Source: a phage. From it: DNA of 44,786 nucleotides. This document shows positions 12,120-23,871 of this stretch, piece by piece (the first letter of the stretch is position 1; every line of letters starts with the position of its first letter). The stretch lies in assembly GCA_012646845.1 (NCBI GenBank), contig GCA_012646845.1_4707.2; one strand, 5' to 3'. The position numbers and the translations under genes were made by a program. The notes under the pieces were generated by a model. It was given only the letters and a program-made list of their open reading frames with translations, was not told the DNA's origin and did no database searches.

Positions 12120-12629
12120 ATGGCGAGATTTACCAGTTTGATTGGGTTGGATATTTGGGAAACACCGGCTGACGTTCGGGTTATTCCTGTCAACACCGTC
12201 GGTGTGATGGGGCGTGGTCTTGCCAAGCAGGCAGCTGATCGTGTACCCGGTCTTCTTGAAGCGTACCGTAAGCAATGTCGAGATGGGTTTAAGGTGGGCG
12301 AAGTCGTATCGTATCAACATGGCGATAACGATCAACTCACCTACGTGTTGTTTCCATCAAAATCGGATTGGCGTGAAAGAACACGGCGCGAGTATATCGT
12401 TAACGGTTTACTGGCGTTAAAAGCGTGGTTATTGGAGCTTCAGTTCGAAAGAGACGGCTTCTCATACCACCGTCCGGCTGAACCACTGATTGTCGCAATT
12501 CCTCCGGTTGGTTCTGGTTGCGGTAATATCGGTTACGGACAATCCGAGACAATCCAGCCTCAATGGGTACGCGCACAAATCAAACAGTATCTTGCCACCG
12601 TGCCAAACGTTCATTTCTACTTGTTCTAA
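12120..12629 (+). CDS. macro-domain protein (putative ADP-ribose binding/hydrolase)
   Basis: ATG at 12120; motifs VIPVNTVGVMGRGLAKQAADRVPG and IAIPPVGSGCGNIGYG resemble macro-domain glycine-rich loops. Confidence 0.7.
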   Translation: MARFTSLIGLDIWETPADVRVIPVNTVGVMGRGLAKQAADRVPGLLEAYRKQCRDGFKVGEVVSYQHGDNDQLTYVLFPSKSDWRERTRREYIVNGLLALKAWLLELQFERDGFSYHRPAEPLIVAIPPVGSGCGNIGYGQSETIQPQWVRAQIKQYLATVPNVHFYLF

Positions 12630-12639
12630 TGCAAAGATA

Positions 12640-12687
12640 GCATAACCCTCCTCCTGGCCTGAACCAGGAGGAAGGGTGTTTTTATGC
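12640..12687. terminator. Bidirectional terminator hairpin between convergent genes
   Basis: GCATAA-CCCTCCTCCTGG-CCTGAA-CCAGGAGGAAGGGTG-TTTTTATGC; perfect extended inverted repeat. Confidence 0.65.
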
Positions 12688-14196
12688 CGCGAAGGTTGGC
12701 TTGTTGCTGGCTTCCCAGGCGGTAGCACCGGTGTCGAAATCGGCATGTTCTGTTACGTTGGAGACGTTCCAACCGGAGATATCCTGGTTGAACGCCTTTG
12801 CGTCCTCAAACATGCTCCGCATCGAAACAATATTAGACATGTTCCAGCTACCGATGTTCTGGTTGAACACAACAGCACTACGGAACATGCGATCGGCATT
12901 CGTTACGTTCGACATATCCCAACCGATGACGTTAGGATCGTTGAACTTCGAACAGCCTAAGAACATCGAGTTGGTGCTGGTGACAGCAGTAGGCAGCTCT
13001 GCCGGGACCGACGTCAGGTTGCTAGCACGTTCGAATGACCAGTTACGGACATCATTCTGTTTCCCGAAGCTCAGAACCGCGAGCAGCGCGTTACCGCCGA
13101 GGTTGATTTTCAGGGATTTAAGTCCGCTCTCTTTCCAACCAATCTCGATGCGACCGGCTTGCGTAACGTCGATGCCCGTATTCGCACCTTCGACAACGTC
13201 TACCTTCACATTGTCGTACGAGAGACGATACCAGAGTTCTGGGTCGACGCCGCCGGTAAGAGGAATATCACCATCGCCCAATGGCACGTCAAACGTGTCG
13301 GAGATAACAGAAAGATCCAGCGCACCCGGCTGCACGGTAGCGGTGAAGTAGGTGAAGTCCTCTGGCTCGGTCACGACCTCATGGTAGCGAAGATACACAT
13401 CGCCAGCCCAAGATTCCGTTTCGGCGTAATCCGTGCTAAGATGCACTGCCTTGTATCCGTCATCAAGGTCGTGCACGGCGATTACATACGCATATTCGAG
13501 CAACGTCGCGAACTCAGTGCGGGTGGTTTCATCGTACCCACCCGCTGAGACCAGACGGTCGATAATGTCGTTACGTAACGCATCATCGATAGCGGCACCG
13601 ATTTCCATCGTCGCCACGTTGTGCTTCGCGACGATCTCATCCCAATCTAACGACAGCGACAGCAGACTCAATGAGGCAAGAGAGTCGCTGTTGTGTAAAT
13701 AGTTGAGTGTATAAAGGTCGGTTTTAGCGATGATGGTCACCAGGTCCAACGTATCGTTGGCGACGGTGAACTTGAGTTTACCTGCCCATACGTAGGAGGC
13801 ATCCGCTGCGTTAAGTTCGAGTTCCTTAACGCCGCTGTCTTCAAAGGTCACTGCGGTTTGCAGATCGGCTTCCAAGAAGTCAACGGTTTTGTCTAACGAC
13901 ACCCCATACCGTGCAGCTAACTGATCGACCACAGCGCCGATGGTGGTATCTGCGTTAACGATGAAGCGCAGAGGAAGACCCAGGAAGTTCTTGGTAAGAT
14001 CTCGGCGAACATAGACCAGGGTTTGTTCGTTGAAGTAGGGGCTACCCTCTAACGGTTTGATGCGGACACTCACCGCATCTGTAGCGTCGTCCTTAGCGAC
14101 AAACTCAAACGTCACGTCCTGTTCGGTCAGCGTAAGCTGGTTCTTACTGTTAACCAGTTCCAGCAACTCATCTTTCCAGTGTTGTAATAACTTCAT
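12682..14196 (-). CDS. putative receptor-binding/tail fibre protein with C-terminal DUF285 (BspA-like) repeats
   Basis: C-terminal repeats GWDMSNVTNADRMF / FNQNIGSWNMSNIVSMRSMF / FNQDISGWNVSNVT; N-terminal domain shared with 15364..17976 and 23321..23848. Confidence 0.75.
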   Translation of the reverse strand: MKLLQHWKDELLELVNSKNQLTLTEQDVTFEFVAKDDATDAVSVRIKPLEGSPYFNEQTLVYVRRDLTKNFLGLPLRFIVNADTTIGAVVDQLAARYGVSLDKTVDFLEADLQTAVTFEDSGVKELELNAADASYVWAGKLKFTVANDTLDLVTIIAKTDLYTLNYLHNSDSLASLSLLSLSLDWDEIVAKHNVATMEIGAAIDDALRNDIIDRLVSAGGYDETTRTEFATLLEYAYVIAVHDLDDGYKAVHLSTDYAETESWAGDVYLRYHEVVTEPEDFTYFTATVQPGALDLSVISDTFDVPLGDGDIPLTGGVDPELWYRLSYDNVKVDVVEGANTGIDVTQAGRIEIGWKESGLKSLKINLGGNALLAVLSFGKQNDVRNWSFERASNLTSVPAELPTAVTSTNSMFLGCSKFNDPNVIGWDMSNVTNADRMFRSAVVFNQNIGSWNMSNIVSMRSMFEDAKAFNQDISGWNVSNVTEHADFDTGATAWEASNKPTFAA

Positions 14197-14203
14197 TTTG
14201 GCC

Positions 14204-14380
14204 TCATTCTAAGCGTGGCATTGAGGGAACCTCGTGCCGGTGTTTTCGGAATTGTGTGTCGATAACCTCACGAAGCTTCAGGGCATCGTGAAGAGTCGAC
14301 GAGTTATACAACGTGAGCGTTACCGTCATGCGGGTGCGTTCACGCGTGTATTCTTTCCGACTGATGATGTCCGTATGCTG
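14204..14380 (-). pseudogene. Partial duplicate of the 3' half of gene 14389..14763
   Basis: Frame encodes ...TVTLTLYNSSTLHDALKLREVIDTQFRKHRHEVPSMPRLE*, paralogous to ...TVTLELFNKSTWVDAYRLREVIDGQFRKHRHEVPSMPKK... of the adjacent gene; DNA-level similarity evident. Confidence 0.45.
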
Positions 14381-14388
14381 TTATGCTA

Positions 14389-14763
14389 TTAATGTTCGTT
14401 CCAGATGGCATCTTCCGGTGGAACAATAGGATCTTTCTTCGGCATTGATGGCACTTCATGACGATGTTTACGGAACTGTCCGTCGATAACTTCACGAAGC
14501 CGGTACGCATCAACCCACGTTGATTTATTGAACAGCTCCAACGTCACAGTTAACCGCGTTCTTGACATTGAATAGCTTTTCTTTGCAATCAAATCGGGAT
14601 AATTCAGTTGAGCGAACCATGCCCGTATTTGTGCTTCGGTAAAAGCGATGCTGTAATAACTAAGTTTACCGTCATTAAAATCGTGCGCGTGGGTGTAACG
14701 TCCAGCGTAACGCCAAACAAGATGCACATTCAGATCGATCCATGGTGGGGTGGTATCAGCCAT
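14389..14763 (-). CDS. hypothetical protein (124 aa)
   Basis: ORF track. Confidence 0.65.
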   Translation of the reverse strand: MADTTPPWIDLNVHLVWRYAGRYTHAHDFNDGKLSYYSIAFTEAQIRAWFAQLNYPDLIAKKSYSMSRTRLTVTLELFNKSTWVDAYRLREVIDGQFRKHRHEVPSMPKKDPIVPPEDAIWNEH

Positions 14764-15363: not shown

Positions 15364-17976
15364 TTAAGCGTCTGGTGTAAAATCAAAAGGAACGTCCGTA
15401 CGAATGATATCATAACGTTTTCCTAGGAAATAGAACTCTTCGGGAACCTGACCGGGAATGATGCTATCGCCGATGAACTGTGGGTATGCCCAGATGTACT
15501 GAGTGAGTCCTTCGAACATATCCAGGTTATTTGCGTGGTTACCCATGATACGTTTCCAGAGTTCGCGTTTATACGGTGTTTTGACATCGAACCCATAAAG
15601 CGGTGCGAGGTCTTCGCCTGGAACAAACCCCAGGTAATAGTGGATCTGACTAACCGGGAACCCAAGCGTGTCTCGCGGAATGGTGATCGCTCGCTCAGCC
15701 TTGGTGACATGCGTCTCAATAATCCAGTCGTAGCACTCCGAATAGAACCGATCGAATTTCTCTGGATTGTACCACGCTTTGGGAAGATTCAGTTTCTCTG
15801 TGAACGCGTTCGACATGATCGTCGGCAAGAACGGAAGAACGCCGGTTTTGATCTGCGTGTATTTCGATTTTACCCGATTGACCAGATTCCAGCAAGCAGA
15901 GCCGAGCTGATCGTTGCAGAACTCAACGTACAGATCGTAATCCCCACCCGATAATGGATTATTAATGTCGCCGATATCGGCGGCGTATTTGTTGGGGTAT
16001 CGGTTATTGAAAGCCAGTTTGGTTTGGTAATCGTAGATACACGGTTTGTTGTTCGCCGTGTTGATCCACCACCAGGGTTCACCTACTTGTACACAAATGT
16101 CTTGGACATGCGGGTAGATGATATCAGCAAACGCGGTTAACACATCCCCTAACCACGTCATCGCATGTTGGTTGCATGGCGACAACAACCAAGACGGCGG
16201 CGTATATCCGGTTGCTGCGATGTTTCCTTCCCAATCCTGCTGCGCCCATTCGAACGGGCATGCGGTACTCATCAATTCGTAACTTAAACTGATGGTGATA
16301 GAGAAATGATGTTTTGCAGCATATGCGGCGAACGCTTCATGCCACGCGATACAGGGTGGATTTAATACATCCGTGGTGTTCACCAGTAACTTACCCGCAC
16401 TTGGCGTCCAGACAGTATCGTAGAAATGCGACATGCCAACATAATGCACTAATTCATCCTGATACCCTGCATAAACCAGGTTTTCAAATACGCGCTCCGG
16501 CGTGATGTTGTAATGGTCATCGTAAGCGGTTATCGCACGAAGTTCGTGTGGTGTACAGTGGTGGCGACTAACCGTCATTTCCTGATACACCCCATCGATA
16601 GGAAGAATCTCGAGGGTTAAACCGAGGTCGATTGGCGTTTCCAGGTAGGTCGTTTCAGTCGCATCTTCCTTATAATGTCGAGAACTCATACTGAACATCA
16701 GCGACGTGACCGATTCGAGTTCGATAGGTTCGTCAGCATAGAACCCCGCCATCGCGTCGTTGAAATCGATCGTTACGATTGCGCTTGTACCGTCTTCAGA
16801 GACGTCGGTCGCATATCGGGTTAATGAGATATACTGACGGCTATCGTCTTTGTGTACGATGGTTAGAACCGGCGGGTGTTCGGTATCTGCAAAGTTACGC
16901 TGATCGCCAGTAAATGTGATCTTCGCTTTAAAGATCAAACCGAGCAACGACGTCATTGGATCATACGCAACACAACCGTGATCCAGCGTATCCGTTGTCC
17001 GCCATTCTATCCCGACCAACCCGTTAGCGGTATGGCATCGCATATACGCATTAAGTACCATGTCTTCACTGACAACCGCGAAGTTCTCTGTTGACTGACC
17101 GTTGATAATCCAATACATCGGTTGCCAGAGGTTACGCGTACCTTTTGCGTAGCGGTAGGTTGGTGCGCCTTTAGGGTTGCCGTTATTGAGATGGAATACG
17201 GCAGTACCTTGGTAATGATCGTTCGTGTTAATCGGAACAGTGTACGCGTCGCCGAGGTCCGTACGTTCGACCTTCGTGACAGTTGCGTTTTCAAACAGCC
17301 TGCGTAGTGTAGGAAGACCAATATCATCAGGCGCGTTTTCTCGACGAATTGCGTCCGCGATGCGATGGGCTAGGGCGGGGTAAATGGTCTCACCCTGCTG
17401 TAAGTTTGCAAGACCTACAAAGCGATCGGGGTTGATACCGGCAATCAATAACTCAACATCGCCCCTCGTTCTATCATCATGGAGGTATTTCAGTCCAGTA
17501 AGATCGAGGTGTCGAATTAACGACAACAGATTGTACTTACGGTTTTCAACAGTCAGTACAAGATCACCTGCCCAAACCAAACTTCCCTCATCCACCATTA
17601 CTCTAACGGATTGGCGGCCTGTGGTAGACGTTGTTGTCGTTTTATTTAATTGTCCTTGTAGGAAGTCGGTTGCGAGGTCAAAGGCAACGCCGTAACGGTC
17701 AGCGACCGCCTGCATGATTTCACGTAACTGGGTATCTTCTTCAATGATGATCTTGACAGGTATTCCCAAGAACGCTTTGGCGAGGTCTCGCTTAACCATC
17801 GAGACGAATACGGATTTGTAATATCGGCCTCCATCTTTCCCTTTAAAAAGAATGGAGGTTGTTTCGGGCGACGATAGAACACGTGCAAATTCAACATCGT
17901 CGGAAGTAAGAGAAAGTCCGTTTTTCTCGTTGACCAATCTTAGTATTTCATTTTGCGCGGTTTCATGCAACTTCAT
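15364..17976 (-). CDS. large putative receptor-binding protein/tailspike (870 aa)
   Basis: N-terminal domain (VKRDLAKAFLGIPVKII) shared with 12682..14196 and 23321..23848; long Trp/Tyr-rich C-terminal domain. Confidence 0.75.
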   Translation of the reverse strand: MKLHETAQNEILRLVNEKNGLSLTSDDVEFARVLSSPETTSILFKGKDGGRYYKSVFVSMVKRDLAKAFLGIPVKIIIEEDTQLREIMQAVADRYGVAFDLATDFLQGQLNKTTTTSTTGRQSVRVMVDEGSLVWAGDLVLTVENRKYNLLSLIRHLDLTGLKYLHDDRTRGDVELLIAGINPDRFVGLANLQQGETIYPALAHRIADAIRRENAPDDIGLPTLRRLFENATVTKVERTDLGDAYTVPINTNDHYQGTAVFHLNNGNPKGAPTYRYAKGTRNLWQPMYWIINGQSTENFAVVSEDMVLNAYMRCHTANGLVGIEWRTTDTLDHGCVAYDPMTSLLGLIFKAKITFTGDQRNFADTEHPPVLTIVHKDDSRQYISLTRYATDVSEDGTSAIVTIDFNDAMAGFYADEPIELESVTSLMFSMSSRHYKEDATETTYLETPIDLGLTLEILPIDGVYQEMTVSRHHCTPHELRAITAYDDHYNITPERVFENLVYAGYQDELVHYVGMSHFYDTVWTPSAGKLLVNTTDVLNPPCIAWHEAFAAYAAKHHFSITISLSYELMSTACPFEWAQQDWEGNIAATGYTPPSWLLSPCNQHAMTWLGDVLTAFADIIYPHVQDICVQVGEPWWWINTANNKPCIYDYQTKLAFNNRYPNKYAADIGDINNPLSGGDYDLYVEFCNDQLGSACWNLVNRVKSKYTQIKTGVLPFLPTIMSNAFTEKLNLPKAWYNPEKFDRFYSECYDWIIETHVTKAERAITIPRDTLGFPVSQIHYYLGFVPGEDLAPLYGFDVKTPYKRELWKRIMGNHANNLDMFEGLTQYIWAYPQFIGDSIIPGQVPEEFYFLGKRYDIIRTDVPFDFTPDA

Positions 17977-17998: not shown

Positions 17999-18640
17999 TT
18001 AGATGTACTGCTTACCGCCCACGAAGGAAGTTAGCCAGTTCCCACTGACAAGCTGTGATACCCAGCCAGGCACTGCCCTGCCATTCTGACTCATCACATT
18101 ACCACACCAACCAGGGAATCCGGGACGGATATAATAGAAAGTTAAATTGTAGAGATGGCAATTCCATACTGCAACGTTATGTTTACGAGCAACCGCTTTA
18201 AAGACAAACGCAACGGGTAAAGGCGACGATAGCAATTCGGTCACGGGGACGGCCGACCAGTTCGCATTTGCGTTCCACGGTTGCCAGGTATGGCTACGCG
18301 AGTCGCAATATACGTTACCGTTGTTACCTCGCCCACCCGCATTCCACCATAGCGACGGACTCATGTTCTTAAGTGAGGTAAATTGCTGTGGTGGAATATT
18401 CGGAATAATAACAGGGTTGACGCCTTGCCCATTTTTCTTTTCTTTTGCGTTCACATACCCGCTTATCGATTCGAGGTATTTGACACCAGGATAATTGTTC
18501 TGGACTCGTGTCGCAATATCACGGACATCAAACGTCCAGCAGATCATGGTGTTGTAGTAAGCATCGGTGTTGTCGTACCATGCGTTACCATCTTGTAAAC
18601 GTGCGCCACTATTCGGTGTTTTATCTGTGCTTATAGCCAT
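17999..18640 (-). CDS. hypothetical tail-associated protein, paralog 1 (213 aa)
   Basis: C-terminal 40 aa (RPGFPGW.GNVMSQNGRAVPGWVSQLVSGNWLTSFVGGKQY) identical to neighbour apart from one residue. Confidence 0.7.
   Translation of the reverse strand: MAISTDKTPNSGARLQDGNAWYDNTDAYYNTMICWTFDVRDIATRVQNNYPGVKYLESISGYVNAKEKKNGQGVNPVIIPNIPPQQFTSLKNMSPSLWWNAGGRGNNGNVYCDSRSHTWQPWNANANWSAVPVTELLSSPLPVAFVFKAVARKHNVAVWNCHLYNLTFYYIRPGFPGWCGNVMSQNGRAVPGWVSQLVSGNWLTSFVGGKQYI
18035..18103. repeat. 69-nt near-identical direct repeat, copy 1
   Basis: Matches 18792-18860 with a single mismatch. Confidence 0.85.
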
Positions 18641-18746
18641 GGTATTGTCCTATACTACGATGATTGAGGTATCGAATGTCGGACGCCTGGTGTCGTCTGG
18701 TAGTACATACAGAAACACCCGCAGATAAAACAATAACTCCCATCAA

Positions 18747-19412
18747 TTAAATTGATGTTAGATACTGCTTACCTCCGACAAACGATGTCAACCAGTTCCC
18801 ACTGACAAGCTGTGATACCCAGCCAGGCACTGCCCTGCCATTCTGGCTCATCACATTACCAGCCCATCCCGGAAAACCAGGTCGGAAAATATATACTTGA
18901 ATATGTGTTAAAGCGTTATCATTACCTCCACCAACAGCAACATTACGACGTCCGGATGATGGGAAATATTCTTTTAAGAACAGGGGATCGTTTGCCAATA
19001 AAGAAGCAGGCCAAGGATTAGCGGATGCGTCAACATCGAATTCGGTCCATCGCCATTTGCGTCCGGTATCGAACCAGGTTGACGTACCGCCACCACGCAC
19101 CGCAAGATTGCGTGCATCACGGGCACTGTATATTGATTCGATGTTTCGCCACCCACCTTTTGCGGCGTTTGCCGCATAGCAAACCGCATTACCACCATTC
19201 TTCTTTTCGTAAACGGTTCGTTTGATATGAACACGGTCGATAAACGCTTCACCGTATTTGTTGACAAGTGTTTGCGCAATATCACGAAGATCGTGCATAT
19301 GAAAGGCGATGTCTTCGTTGTGGAACCACGTTGTCGGGTTCCAAACGGTGCCGTTTGGTTCGGCACACATCGATCTGATATTGTTGCGCTGATTAATCGC
19401 GATAAAGCCCAT
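18747..19412 (-). CDS. hypothetical tail-associated protein, paralog 2
   Basis: Start moved to ATG at 19412 (GAGGTG RBS; track start at 19475 lies inside an upstream hairpin); N-terminal DLRDIAQTLVNKY aligns with DVRDIATRVQNNY of paralog 1. Confidence 0.7.
   Translation of the reverse strand: MGFIAINQRNNIRSMCAEPNGTVWNPTTWFHNEDIAFHMHDLRDIAQTLVNKYGEAFIDRVHIKRTVYEKKNGGNAVCYAANAAKGGWRNIESIYSARDARNLAVRGGGTSTWFDTGRKWRWTEFDVDASANPWPASLLANDPLFLKEYFPSSGRRNVAVGGGNDNALTHIQVYIFRPGFPGWAGNVMSQNGRAVPGWVSQLVSGNWLTSFVGGKQYLTSI
18792..18860. repeat. 69-nt near-identical direct repeat, copy 2
   Basis: Matches 18035-18103 with a single mismatch. Confidence 0.85.
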
Positions 19413-19527
19413 GGCCCACCTCGTTTCTATTCTCGAAGGAAATTTCATACGATGACGCCATAACAGCTCCCCCATCCCCCCAACCCGTAAGGGAAGGGAG
19501 GATGTAAGGGAAGGAGGAGCTATTTAA

Positions 19528-20031
19528 TTACTGGCTGACAACCTCAACGGAACTGGGATCGGCGATCAGCGCACGGTCGGTAGAACAATTGAAGAAGACC
19601 ATCCCAACACCATCGCCGTTCGAGTTCAGGGTTGAACTTACGTAAGACAATGTTGGTTTATTCATACGGTAGAAGCGTTCGCTGGTGGTGGTATTGAACC
19701 CCAGATCAACGTAGTCTTTCACCGTGGTGTACAGCTGTGTGGACTCGAAAACGGTTACCGGAGAGTCAACGGTAAACTGACTGCCTTCATCCACAACCAG
19801 AACTTTATCGTTCCAGATTTCAGTGGTTGAGAACTTCGGTTTCCAATGTTCGAATTCCTGGGTTGCGCCCCAGCAAGAATACACAGCGAGATTGCTGTTC
19901 TTCTCGACAGGTTTTAACCCCACCAGTTGTGTCAGGCCTTTATCCAGGTTCGGTAAGCCTTCCAGCGTAGCACACCCACCCAGAGAAAGTACCATCAACA
20001 TACCGAGAATAATCGCGCAAAGTTTCTTCAT
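19528..20031 (-). CDS. lipoprotein (167 aa)
   Basis: Signal peptide with lipobox MKKLCAIILGMLMVLSLGGC. Confidence 0.75.
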   Translation of the reverse strand: MKKLCAIILGMLMVLSLGGCATLEGLPNLDKGLTQLVGLKPVEKNSNLAVYSCWGATQEFEHWKPKFSTTEIWNDKVLVVDEGSQFTVDSPVTVFESTQLYTTVKDYVDLGFNTTTSERFYRMNKPTLSYVSSTLNSNGDGVGMVFFNCSTDRALIADPSSVEVVSQ

Positions 20032-20075: not shown

Positions 20076-20660
20076 TTACACAGCTGTAGGAAGTTCAGGC
20101 CAATCGATATTTGGTGCTGTTGATGTGTCAACGCGGTGCAGAGCCACCCGATACTTTTTCCATGCTGTCAGCATCGACACCTCTTCTTCCGTTGCGATCT
20201 CCAGATCCACAGCATCCTGAAGTGGCGCAATACGATCATTCGCTGCCTGCATCAGACTGTTTTTTGTTTCTTCCGCCTCCCGGACATGGGATTGTTTTTC
20301 CGCATCTGTATCTTTCACCCAGGTTGTTCCGTCCCACTTCTGAAACTCTCCTTCCGGGGATAACCAAGTAGTATTTTCTGGTAACGGACCGAGTTCAGAA
20401 ATAAATAACGCGTCGCCGGAAGCCACATCATAGACGGTTTTACCCCGATGGTCTTCAACAATATACCACGATTCATTTTCACTGTTAAAAACTGCCACAA
20501 AGTCAGCAGGAATTTCCGGTGGGGCGATATCTGTAGAATTAGCTGGTAGTCCCGTATGCGGTGGAATATATGCGTCGCCTTCACCAATAAACTCATTGGT
20601 TCCGGCCAGCAGATTATAAATTTTTATGGTTTGTGGTTCATCACTCATTCTGAATGCCAT
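20076..20660 (-). CDS. tail fibre assembly protein (chaperone)
   Basis: Start overlaps fibre stop (TAATG); sequence resembles Tfa/gpG-type chaperones; position immediately downstream of fibre gene. Confidence 0.8.
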
Positions 20661-23314
20661 TATGCAAGCCTCACGATGTAGTTAAATGCGATGTTTTTGA
20701 CGGTGTTTTCCGCGTTACCCGCGGCGTTAACGGTGATGGTGTGTCCATGCGATCCAATCGCAACCGAGTGCGTATGCGCACCAATACCTACAGTATGTGC
20801 ATGTGCACCGGCACTCGCGGCTGTACCGGACAATGAGTGACTATGAGCGCCAGCAGAAGAAGTGTTGACATCGTATTTAGCATAATCAGGCGACCCACTT
20901 CCCGGAGTACCACTGGTGCCACCTGCGACAAATCTCATCGAGTGGGTGTGTGCTCCAGCCGTGTTTGTGGAACCACTCAGACTGTGCGTATGCGCCCCGG
21001 TGTTATTCGTGGTTTTAGTGCCGTAATCAAACGACGATGTGGTTTTCGTCCCCAAATCCGTACCGGATGCGCTGGCGCTATGGTTGTGCGATTTAATGCC
21101 GTCCTGTTCCTGAGACAATACAGCACGACCACTGGCAGGTTTGCCCTTAATCGTCCAGCCACGCATATCAGGAATAACGCCTGACGGATAAGCCACTGCA
21201 AGTTTCGGGTATACAGATTTGTCAAAAGTCTGCCCTTGCATCAGAGCATAACCAGACGGAACGGTATCTGAAGGCCATGGAATAGGCGTACCAACAGGCA
21301 ACGCTGAACCGCCATCCGAACCCGCATCTTTGGTTGGTATAACGATGTTCGCCGAGCCGTCGAACTCAATACCGTTGATTGTGACAGCCGTTTGCAATTT
21401 CGTGGCTGTCGCAGCGTTACCCGTCGTATTCTGATTACCAACCGCATTGACGCCCGGTAATGCAATATCCGCTGTTCCGTCAAAGGCAACACCACCGATT
21501 TTACGTGCGGTTTGTAGCTTGGTTGCACTAGCGGCGTTACCGCTGGTATTCTGGGTGCCAGCTTTGTTAACACCGGGGAGATCGATGTTAGCAGAACCAT
21601 CGAAGCTGACGCCACCTATCGTTCTTGCGGTAGCGAGTTTAGCTGCTGTGGCTGCATTATTACCCACTTTCAGCCAATCATCCCATGGGCCATCCTGGCC
21701 GTTCCATGCTGCCGTTAAACTACGTACGTAAATATTGCCGGTACGTACAGTGTAACGTTGCGTTCCACCGAATTGTCCGGCAGGGAGCACTTCAAGGTAA
21801 CCTGCGGCATTTGCTTCAGGGAAATTGTGGGCGACGTCCGCGTTCGTTGATACTGGTTTAGACCAAATACCCACGGACGCTTCAACCGGACCGTAAGTAT
21901 TCAGATTTGCGTCGGTGGGGAGCTGTCCTCGAAAACGCTGGAATTGTGTTGCCGATAACCCCAACGTTGTTTGCATGCTTTCAATGCTGGATTGCTGCAG
22001 TAACGTCCGTGCTGTCGACGTAATCACGGTAAGCGCAACTTTATTAACACCGGTGAAATACGGGAGTTTGTCTGCTGATGTCACTAAACCTGAAAAGGCG
22101 GTCAGTAATTCGTTAAGGGGTTGCTTCCCAGCTAACGCATTTGTTACCGTCGTTGCGAAATTAGGATCGCTTCCTATAGCTCGAGCCAGCTTATTAAGCG
22201 TATTTAGCGTCGCTGGTGACGAGTCGATCAGTGCCGTGATCGCACGCATCACAAATTCCGTGTTGGCTATCTGTCGACTGCTATCGTTAACTGCTGCGGT
22301 GGGCGCTGCTGGCGTACCAGTGAATACAGGGCTATTAAGATCCGCCTTGAGGGCGATGAGGCGTTTAAGCGCTTCAACATCAACTTTCAGGTTTTCCCAT
22401 CCGATGAGAGAACCATCACCGTTGGCATGATAACGGTTGTACCAGAAGTCACCGTTAACGCCAAAAAAGAATATACATTTCTCTTCGTTTTGTGGACCGG
22501 AACTATTTCGTGATGAGTCGATATATTTGATTTCAATAAGACCGCTAAACACCACCCCTGGGATTATATTGTTGTCTCCAGCTGACTGTGATACCTGGTA
22601 CATCCCCGGGGTTGCGGCTTTAACCCATGTTAAGAATTCTGTTACTCCAGCGGTACCGCTAAAATTCTTAACGTCGGTAAGTATCGCCCCATAACCGAAC
22701 ATACCGGGTAGAGCCACTCGTCCGCTGGTACGATCACGAATATCTGTCGCAACAACAGGCAATTGTTTACGAACGGCATTAACCGCTTTAGGCGTGGCCG
22801 ATTTTGTCTCGTCGTCGCTATCGGTTTCATTACTTAGAATAGTTAAACCGCGTGTAGCAGTAGTTGCATCAGGAAGAAATGCGTTATCCAACACCTTAAG
22901 CTGTATTGCACTCGTATTACTAACAACGACATGCACCTGACAGTTAAGAACGCTGGTTGCGCCTTCGGCAGGCGTAGGCTTATATCTTTCTGGCGCACTG
23001 CAGACGGCAATCAGAACACCTTGGTCGTCATACAGACCGATCTCACGTACCCAGAACCCACCTTGACTAGCAGGAATAATACCCTCAACGATAATCCTGG
23101 TTGTACTATCGCCATCCGTATGGACATTGGAAACTTCCCCACGATAAACTTCATGGACAAGCGCTGTTTGACTGGTGGTTGGGGTTGGGATCGAACCACT
23201 ACCATCGCCAACGGCAAAGTGTGTGATTTTTAGTTTCTTACCGTCAGGAAGTAACGCTGCAGCGATACGTTCTGCGCCTTTATCGGTAACGACCGTTTTA
23301 TATGCTGTACTCAT
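20660..23314 (-). CDS. tail fibre protein, P2 gpH-like N-terminus, internal repeats, His-rich C-terminus
   Basis: N-terminus [21 protein letters not shown]...[20 protein letters not shown] resembles gpH-type collar domain; ~39-aa tandem repeats ([28 protein letters not shown]); C-terminal GAHTHS repeats. Confidence 0.9.
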
Positions 23315-23320
23315 GATGTT

Positions 23321-23848
23321 TTATCCTGGATAAATAGTGATGGTATCGCCAATGACGGCTGTAGCACCGGTGTAAAGATAAGCCGGAGATACATCACGCT
23401 GGTTTGTCGCAGTAAGATCCAGTCGACCACGCCAAACCATAGAGGTACTCGCAATGGGGATAGAAATCTTTTTGGATATATCGTCACGAAAATCAATAAC
23501 AGTGGCAAGGGTAACTGCATCAAAGTCAACGTCGGGGTCAAAGACGAACCCGTATTGATCTGAAATCGCCCGAATAATCGCATTTATAGTTGTTGTCTCA
23601 ACGGACTCTAAAACGATTTTTACCGGTATTCCTAGAAATACCTTCGCAATATCGCGTCGAGCGTAAACGATAAAACTTTCACCGTTCCACCTTGTTCCTT
23701 CATTTGCTGTGACGATCACTTTTGCCATGTTAGCACCGGAACTTCCATCCAAGACTAATGTAAGATCGGAGCTGTTGAACACGCTACTGTTACGTCTGTT
23801 TATCAATGACGTCAGTTCGTCTTTCCATGGCGGGTAAAGTGAACACAT
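23321..23848 (-). CDS. hypothetical protein carrying the shared RBP N-terminal domain only
   Basis: Start moved to ATG at 23848 (GGAGGAGGG RBS); ARRDIAKVFLGIPVKIV motif matches N-termini of 12682..14196 and 15364..17976. Confidence 0.65.
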   Translation of the reverse strand: MCSLYPPWKDELTSLINRRNSSVFNSSDLTLVLDGSSGANMAKVIVTANEGTRWNGESFIVYARRDIAKVFLGIPVKIVLESVETTTINAIIRAISDQYGFVFDPDVDFDAVTLATVIDFRDDISKKISIPIASTSMVWRGRLDLTATNQRDVSPAYLYTGATAVIGDTITIYPG

Positions 23849-23871
23849 ATATGCACCCTCCTCCAACATAA

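Follow-up and report, generated by a model that had tools for sequence, protein, structure and literature searches.

A stretch of phage DNA of 44,786 nucleotides (GenBank assembly GCA_012646845.1, contig GCA_012646845.1_4707.2), hereafter the window, was found to carry at 12682-14196 a gene for a 504-residue protein that couples an N-terminal DUF7941 module to a C-terminal array of DUF285 repeats predicted to fold as a leucine-rich repeat (LRR) solenoid. The gene probably encodes an accessory virion adhesin that is borne on the baseplate filaments of a Goslar-like chimallivirus, a jumbo myovirus of the nucleus-forming kind that occurs in Escherichia coli and Salmonella assemblies. It forms a single open reading frame (ORF) from ATG to stop on the minus strand, and an exact-sequence look-up identified its product as NCBI EFI3750183.1 from an E. 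coli assembly. The chimallivirus origin of the window is indicated by its synteny with the E. coli jumbo phage Goslar, to which it is 94% identical in DNA over 74% of a 10-kb stretch, and by homologues of the gene on Goslar-like contigs of up to 244 kb. Little is known of the way in which nucleus-forming jumbo phages locate a host, and their evasion of many DNA-targeting defences makes them candidates for use in therapy.

Repeat array and anchor module

The first-pass annotation had placed DUF285 repeats in the C-terminal part of the protein, and the profile search bore this out far beyond chance, as Pfam DUF285 (PF03382) matched residues 404-493 (12718-12987) with 86.9 bits against a cutoff of 25 (E 1.1e-24). 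The strings it had quoted as repeats lie at residues 425-438, 444-463 and 469-484 and belong to tandem units of about 25 residues with conserved hydrophobic and aromatic positions, which follow the pattern F..FNQ.I..W[ND]VS.V..M..MF. The W[DN]xS motif has its tryptophan at residues 426, 451 and 476, a spacing of exactly 25 residues, and in the DNA the units are seen as direct repeats spaced 75 and 150 nt apart. The PARCEL models of NCBIfam detect the same repeat, but below their curated naming cutoffs (24.3 bits against 30 for the single-repeat model TIGR02167 and 66 bits against 500 for the model of the Mbov_0838 PARCEL lipoprotein). Dyad symmetry of the PARCEL type was looked for in the DNA of 12600-14400, where the sole inverted repeat is the terminator; one unit holds a 6-bp dyad, GTTGGA/TCCAAC, because of the codons for its GW..SN residues.

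A structure prediction agreed with the profile match. The AlphaFold2 (AF2) model of residues 271-504, built on 40 sequences, reached a predicted template modelling score (pTM) of 0.80 and a predicted local distance difference test (pLDDT) score of 92-98 across the repeats, and the predicted fold is a right-handed beta/loop solenoid superimposable on solved LRR proteins. On this model the C-terminal region would be an LRR solenoid of monomer type. The region had also been called BspA-like, of which the genuine DUF285 (PARCEL) repeat and the predicted LRR fold stand. Strict membership of the BspA/LRR_5 group was rejected, as neither LRR_5 (PF13306) nor any other LRR family of Pfam gave a match at E<=1. 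The term is valid only at the level of fold or clan, and as a label it follows the naming habit of NCBI for DUF285 proteins. In bacterial and phage DUF285 proteins that are homologous to residues 271-504, a PKD-like segment of the form 'DWGDG...HTY' often precedes the repeats; the 504-residue protein has a degenerate version of it ('PLGDGD...YRLSY'), for which the model was poor.

The N-terminal half of the protein was assigned to DUF7941 (PF25613), which matched residues 3-272 over profile positions 3-275 of 276 with 97.6 bits against a cutoff of 27, and a local DUF7941 hidden Markov model (HMM) matched the protein at E 1.7e-73. The module is of uneven conservation, as residues 1-156 are 87% identical to the orthologue P0003 and 56% identical to Goslar gp161, whereas the identity of residues 157-272 to any homologue is only about 20%. 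When residues 1-300 were compared exhaustively by HMMER with 1.84 billion representatives (E<=1e-3), only 58 relatives emerged, 134-1478 aa in length. Among the 56 representatives that were scanned, DUF285 was present in 12, LRR_5 in one and an NCTSP barrel in one. A DUF7941 profile built from 56 sequences gathered around the 504-residue protein matched phiKZ gp127 (PDB 9xqd chain 0) over its whole length at E 1.3e-12; phiKZ gp127 was reached only by this family profile, a single-sequence phmmer search of the PDB having returned only spurious antibody matches. In phiKZ, the gp139 band within the star-lobe complex, a part of the outer peripheral baseplate, ends in gp127 (PMC13250141). The anchor is thereby linked by homology to a protein with an experimentally determined position in the virion. 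The PHROG families that match the N-terminus carry the label 'virion structural protein'.

Among phage isolates, the nearest homologue is Goslar gp161; its gene lies elsewhere in the Goslar genome, and the two proteins align over the full length at 35.7% identity (E 2e-69). In a 2026 preprint devoted to the Goslar virion, DUF7941 is described as a chimallivirus-specific family with the Goslar members gp22, 23, 31, 33, 34, 86, 91, 92, 93 and 161 (bioRxiv 10.64898/2026.04.21.720040). According to the same preprint, purified gp22 forms filaments for which head-to-tail docking is predicted, as is a network of heteromeric interactions among DUF7941 proteins, and a 'fibre cloud' of multivalent filaments, micrometres long and anchored at the peripheral baseplate, is proposed. 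The payloads of gp86, gp92 and gp161 are carbohydrate-binding, glycoside-hydrolase or LRR domains. Mass spectrometry (MS) of Goslar virions detected gp161 with 27 peptides, 54% coverage and about 111 copies per virion (range 74-174), and gp86 was estimated at about 4.5 copies per virion (bioRxiv 10.64898/2026.04.21.720040).

The first-pass annotation had regarded such repeats as unusual in a phage tail protein, which the surveys contradict. Hits to DUF285 were obtained in 85 phage records, a few of which hold 20 to 40 or more copies, and in 38 viral models of BFVD at E<=1e-3, including the jumbo phages N1M2 and D3, cyanophages and the Aureococcus virus, in addition to the 12 of 56 DUF7941 representatives given above. 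As the combination of DUF7941 with LRR has already been described for Goslar gp161 (bioRxiv 10.64898/2026.04.21.720040), the 504-residue protein is an expected extension of the family and not a surprise. What is new at this locus is a presence/absence indel of 1.7 kb by the tail-fibre cluster, a swap of the central cassette, and a polymorphism of exactly one 75-nt unit.

Variation and gene context of the locus

The first of these three kinds of variation separates the window from Goslar, which lacks the gene at this position and has 29 bp in place of a 1723-bp segment (Table 1). The segment gave no match in complete E. coli genomes, and among phage isolates this region of the window has no match at the DNA level but in Goslar, itself devoid of the gene. 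In the 192-bp spacer upstream of the gene, which Goslar lacks as well, sits a remnant of a second gp084-like gene, whose stop codon overlaps the Shine-Dalgarno sequence of the 504-residue protein's gene; it is common to the related contig L003 and absent from Goslar. Judged from the sequence, the remnant suggests a scar, left when the cassette would have arrived with a piece of the neighbouring gene from a diverged relative. It favours insertion of a foreign fragment as the origin of the indel, and a deletion in Goslar may be the alternative. The GC content of the gene is 52.2% against 46.1% for the window, with a peak of 55.4% at residues 273-384; that of the variable cassette (52.5%) is among the top 2.3% of windows. 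Such a raised GC content would fit a cassette of foreign origin.

The second kind of variation was seen within the gene. At the same locus, a DUF7941-DUF285 gene (P0003) is present in the related contigs L003-L005, and against L003 the DNA identity is 93% down to 13728, collapses over 13727-12796 and returns to 94.6% from 12795 onwards (blastn). The protein follows the same division, with segment identities to P0003 of 87% (residues 1-156), about 20% (157-384), 45% (385-466) and 82% (467-504). A template copy of the variable region, as in diversity-generating retroelements, was looked for and no second copy lies anywhere in the window. In L006 the DUF7941-DUF285 gene stands within the tail-fibre cluster among three other DUF7941 genes. 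Two further arrangements are evidence of payload duplication: P0002 (775 aa; L008 8001-10328), from the same neighbourhood, bears two successive LRR modules on one DUF7941 anchor, each with its own C-terminal cap, and L009 (8001-12474) has two DUF7941-DUF285 genes in tandem at a gp161-type locus.

The third kind concerns the number of repeats. The 90% cluster of the protein comprises four alleles of 504 aa and two of 529 aa, all 98-99% identical, from E. coli and Salmonella assemblies and metagenomes. The DNA of one 529-aa allele (L010) is 100% identical to the window on each side of an exact 75-nt insertion, which is bounded by the 11-nt direct repeat GGTTGGAACGT (12774-12764); one structural unit was therefore gained or lost by slippage or unequal exchange. 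The near-identical genes from Salmonella enterica assemblies lie on contigs of 54, 231 and 244 kb. It follows that the sequencing of enterobacterial isolates also captures Goslar-like jumbo phages, perhaps through a carrier state or contamination.

These data bear on two alternatives to an adhesin. A dispensable passenger, i.e., a PARCEL-type cassette that was spread by recombination and persists with no contribution to fitness, is a very improbable explanation, although PARCEL ORFs have been described as cargo of the mobilome spread by horizontal gene transfer (HGT; PMC2996958) and the gene lies in an indel with a recombination scar and raised GC content. Against it stand an intact ORF with a good Shine-Dalgarno sequence and a terminator, its conservation in the six independent alleles, and a sole length change that is in frame and amounts to exactly one structural unit. 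The architecture recurs in many chimalliviruses, the paralogue gp161 is present at the high copy number given above, and PARCEL-style dyad symmetry was not detected in the DNA searched. A structural or assembly role, in which the LRR would cap, cross-link or anchor DUF7941 filaments or tail fibres in the peripheral baseplate with no contact to the host, is distinctly unlikely: the LRR is invariant among the six alleles and the preprint predicts that DUF7941 proteins interact heteromerically in a network, but an essential part would not be missing from Goslar, have its central cassette swapped between close relatives or vary in the number of its units.

Table 1. Features of the gene at 12682-14196 and of its surroundings in the window (dot, no strand assigned)
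Feature	Position	Strand	Basis
Complete coding sequence (CDS), 504 aa and stop, DUF7941 + DUF285/LRR	12682..14196	-	ORF list; Pfam; exact-sequence look-up
DUF7941 N-terminal globular domain, residues 1-156, conserved anchor/docking part	13729..14196	-	
DUF7941 linker and C-terminal subdomain, residues 157-272, fast-diverging	13381..13728	-	Subdomain scheme from Basu et al.
Beta-rich spacer, residues 273-339, degenerate 'PLGDGD' motif	13180..13380	-	Alignments; low pLDDT in fragment residues 32-69
Non-canonical N-terminal turns of the LRR solenoid, residues 340-384	13045..13179	-	
DUF285/PARCEL repeats, residues 385-504	12685..13044	-	Pfam; repeat alignment; pLDDT 92-98
Degenerate unit of the array, residues 385-412	within 12685..13044	-	
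Unit 1 of the array, residues 413-438	within 12685..13044	-	
Unit 2 of the array, residues 439-463	within 12685..13044	-	
Unit 3 fused to conserved C-terminal cap, residues 464-504	within 12685..13044	-	
Central cassette, residues ~157-466, replaced or diverged against orthologues in L003-L005	12796..13727	-	blastn break points
Junction of natural 75-nt (one-unit) indel, between 12775 and 12774	12764..12775	-	DNA alignment with L010
Shine-Dalgarno GAGG, 5 nt 5' of ATG	14202..14205	-	Read from sequence
GC-rich hairpin between the gene and the convergent macro-domain gene	12646..12675	.	Terminator annotated in Goslar
1723-bp segment, 29 bp in its place in Goslar	12651..14373	.	blastn of window against Goslar 87793-101395
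Pseudogene remnant, 3' end of second gp084-like gene	14204..14341	-	78.7% DNA match to Goslar gp084 3' end; translation ERTRMTVTLTLYNSSTLHDALKLREVIDTQFRKHRHEVPSMPRLE, then stop
Neighbouring paralogue, 870 aa, Goslar gp086 homologue, DUF7941 + NCTSP_N + TIM barrel	15364..17976	-	
Tail-fibre assembly chaperone (Caudo_TAP)	20076..20660	-	Pfam
Classical tail fibre (Phage_tail_fib, Collar)	20660..23314	-	Pfam
DUF7941-only protein, 182 aa, directly beside the tail-fibre gene	23321..23869	-	Pfam; local HMM E 1.6e-50

The gene runs in the same direction as the gp86-like and tail-fibre genes and forms a contiguous series with them, and the hairpin downstream of it is a probable bidirectional terminator. 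The gp86-like neighbour lies two genes away; its N-terminal module is 34% identical to that of the 504-residue protein over residues 1-250, and its NCTSP_N and TIM barrel are related to gp64/gp65 of phage N4 (PDB 9lc0 gp64, E 4.6e-30). [quoted passage not shown] A 216-aa antisense ORF (12701-13351, plus strand) overlies the C-terminal half of the gene and was dropped as a feature, since 10.8% of 2000 synonymous-codon shuffles gave an equal or longer stop-free run.

Several further differences from Goslar were noted among these neighbours. The tail fibre has 884 aa and its chaperone 194 aa, compared with about 1324 aa (gp090) and 138 aa in Goslar, and DNA similarity to Goslar ends at 20117, just within the chaperone gene; the classical fibre cassette appears to have been swapped too, relative to Goslar. 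A second indel, relative to Goslar, L003 and L006, spans 18693-19417 and brings an extra 242-aa gene (ORF 18747..19475, minus strand), which is a diverged paralogue of its neighbour, the gp087 homologue at 17999-18640; the two are 36% identical overall and agree in 27 of the last 28 residues. The gp088 homologue at 19528-20031 on the minus strand, for which Pfam gave no match, is an abundant uncharacterised virion protein encoded beside the tail-fibre cluster, its Goslar counterpart being estimated by MS at about 737 copies per virion (bioRxiv 10.64898/2026.04.21.720040).

The protein had been annotated as a putative phage tail or receptor-binding protein. Of this, recognition of the host at the virion surface is plausible, given the DUF7941 module, its relation to phiKZ gp127 and the presence of gp161 in virions; a classical tail fibre or tailspike was rejected on its Pfam and PHROG domains and on the separate fibre gene. 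That the protein is a classical trimeric receptor-binding protein (RBP) of this kind is extremely improbable. It lies near the tail-fibre cluster and its N-terminus matches PHROG families labelled as virion structural proteins, but neither Pfam nor PHROG found a tail-fibre, collar, beta-helix tailspike or chaperone-dependent domain, the N-terminus is DUF7941 and not a fibre shaft, the canonical fibre and Caudo_TAP pair is encoded separately at 20076-23314, and the predicted fold is that of a monomer-type LRR solenoid.

An intracellular factor, or an effector that is packaged and injected and that has its LRR directed, during infection, at a protein of the host or the phage, is likewise improbable. 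Chimalliviruses do package many injected proteins (bioRxiv 10.64898/2026.04.21.720040), certain mycoplasma DUF285 proteins have host-cell proteins as their targets, with MbovP0145 binding beta-actin, and the flanking genes (macro domain and gp084) are not obviously structural. However, the N-terminal module is the same as in phiKZ gp127, which was placed on the outer baseplate by cryo-electron microscopy, the inner-body proteins that are injected come from a different family, PF12699 (bioRxiv 10.64898/2026.04.21.720040), and the gene keeps orientation and contiguity with the gp86-like and tail-fibre genes.

Proposed role in contact with the host

The analysis shows the domain identities, the predicted fold, the homology of the anchor to a baseplate protein of solved structure, the genomic position and the three kinds of variation. 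We infer that the 504-residue protein is incorporated into virions as a member of the baseplate filaments and that its ligand is to be sought on the host surface. The DUF7941 module (residues 1-272) would dock head-to-tail with other DUF7941 proteins and tether the protein to, or into, these flexible filaments, and the LRR solenoid (residues ~340-504), with its 25-residue units and C-terminal cap, would be the displayed ligand-binding payload. Such a payload would most likely make the first, reversible contacts with a host surface structure, and these contacts may raise the capture radius and avidity of the virion before the classical tail fibres and the baseplate commit. Specificity could be tuned by presence or absence of the gene, by exchange of the central cassette and by gain or loss of single 75-nt units.

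Several lines of evidence were counted in favour of the filament-borne adhesin. The mosaic break points and the exact 75-nt indel are variation typical of host-range modules, and an unbroken ORF with 98-99% conservation across six independently sampled alleles points to maintenance. DUF285 recurs among the DUF7941 representatives, with related genes at the same locus, at the tail-fibre locus and at the gp161 locus. The gene also adjoins the tail-fibre cluster and has its N-terminal module in common with the gp86-like neighbour.

Other observations weigh against the filament-borne adhesin. The virion MS evidence concerns gp161, a 36%-identical paralogue, and not the 504-residue protein itself, and the Goslar preparation analysed by MS also held non-virion assemblies such as phage-nucleus proteins (bioRxiv 10.64898/2026.04.21.720040). 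The filament-cloud model is a proposal of the preprint drawn from AlphaFold, negative-stain electron microscopy (EM) of one protein and phiKZ density; the DUF7941 density is unresolved in Goslar, and filament formation was seen by negative stain only for Goslar gp22 and is predicted for the others (bioRxiv 10.64898/2026.04.21.720040). The full-length AF2 model, from an alignment of 12 sequences, had a mean pLDDT of 52 and was left out of the fold search. A ligand is known for no phage DUF285 domain, and for bacterial DUF285 proteins the functional data are few and disparate. Since Goslar can infect E. coli in the absence of the gene, the gene is dispensable, at least on some hosts. The LRR shows almost no point variation in the six close alleles and thus gives no hint that diversifying selection is under way in this class of alleles.

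Display on the virion would also suit a different target. The LRR tips might bind an environmental matrix (mucus, biofilm polymers, capsule or exopolysaccharide) or flagella and hold the phage near its hosts, by analogy with the presumed role of Ig-like decorations of capsids. The sole knockout phenotype found for a DUF285-containing protein, from Lactococcus lactis, is weaker attachment to mucin and to bare polystyrene (PMC5071367). The filaments, as proposed, would be multivalent and reach micrometres in length, Goslar can do without the gene, and such phages are found in gut-associated E. coli and Salmonella isolates. Nevertheless we consider binding to a matrix rather unlikely, as the L. 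lactis protein has several further adhesive domains that may contribute to the phenotype, and the sister DUF7941 payloads, which are carbohydrate-binding or carbohydrate-hydrolysing or resemble the N4 gp64/gp65 barrel, are typical modules of host-envelope recognition.

If the DUF7941 filament model is right, such genes would be exchangeable 'tips' that set what the filaments stick to. A bolder possibility, which we hold to be unlikely, is that DUF285/PARCEL arrays on polymerising DUF7941 filaments are a principal, fast-evolving host-range determinant of chimalliviruses, with slippage of single units acting as a contingency locus, of which the exact 75-nt indel between 11-nt direct repeats would be an example. 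Were this true, slippage would yield receptor-binding variants of 504 and 529 aa within populations that are otherwise identical and pass between E. coli and Salmonella, and a repeat family unexplained in bacteria, giant viruses and jumbo phages would gain its first defined function, as a module for viral attachment. The locus offers a natural experiment, with Goslar lacking the gene, relatives bearing other central cassettes, and near-identical alleles that are one unit apart. These three contrasts could serve to test whether DUF7941-LRR proteins have an effect on adsorption or host range, and could give DUF285/PARCEL a function.

Comparison with known systems

The nearest known system is Goslar gp161 of the same phage lineage, in which a full DUF7941 module is followed by DUF285/LRR units and the same C-terminal cap, and which is counted among the 'fibre cloud' proteins and was detected in purified virions. 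It differs in being a paralogue and not an orthologue, since it lies downstream of a SNF2 helicase whereas the gene described here stands between gp083 and gp084, and in its sequence, with 56% identity in the N-terminal domain and only about 20% in residues 157-384. The phiKZ proteins gp127 and gp126 are homologous to the DUF7941 module over their whole length, and gp127 provides the only experimentally located position for it; they consist of DUF7941 only, with no C-terminal payload, belong to a phage of Pseudomonas, and their similarity is detectable by profile only. Goslar gp86 and its homologue at 15364-17976 have the same N-terminal DUF7941 and follow the same scheme of one anchor with a swappable host-recognition payload. 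Their payload is a TIM barrel of the N4 type instead of an LRR, and they are conserved in Goslar.

Outside phages, the repeat is known from bacterial PARCEL/DUF285/TIGR02167 proteins such as the Mycoplasma lipoproteins LppQ and MbovP0145, surface proteins of Bacteroidota exported by T9SS, and AJ89_07570 of L. lactis. The 504-residue protein shares with them the amphipathic repeat of 25 residues, with units up to 50-58% identical to bacterial surface proteins, as well as a variable copy number and a history of horizontal spread (PMC2996958). It differs in that their cell-surface anchor, a frequent though not obligatory trait of the family, is replaced by the virion anchor DUF7941, in having three to four units against up to dozens, and in the lack of significant DNA dyad symmetry or a meaningful antisense ORF. 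BspA of Tannerella forsythia and other LRR_5 proteins are set apart from it by the missing LRR_5 match, a true LRR_5 being found in one of the 56 DUF7941 proteins. Among large viruses, Aeromonas phage D3, Klebsiella phage N1M2, Vibrio phage pir03 (the 'PARCEL' ORF200), cyanophage ACG-2014f and Aureococcus anophagefferens virus (AaV) encode proteins with the same repeat and predicted fold, and two DUF285 proteins of AaV are packaged in virions (PMC7507832). These proteins mostly have far longer arrays with no DUF7941 anchor, and none has an assigned function.

The logic of the proposed arrangement resembles that of branched multi-RBP systems, such as the CBA120/G7C-type tailspike sets, in which several receptor-recognition proteins have one attachment module in common and differ in their payloads. 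Those sets are trimeric beta-helix tailspikes on a defined branched scaffold, whereas here a polymerising DUF7941 anchor would carry an LRR of monomer type.

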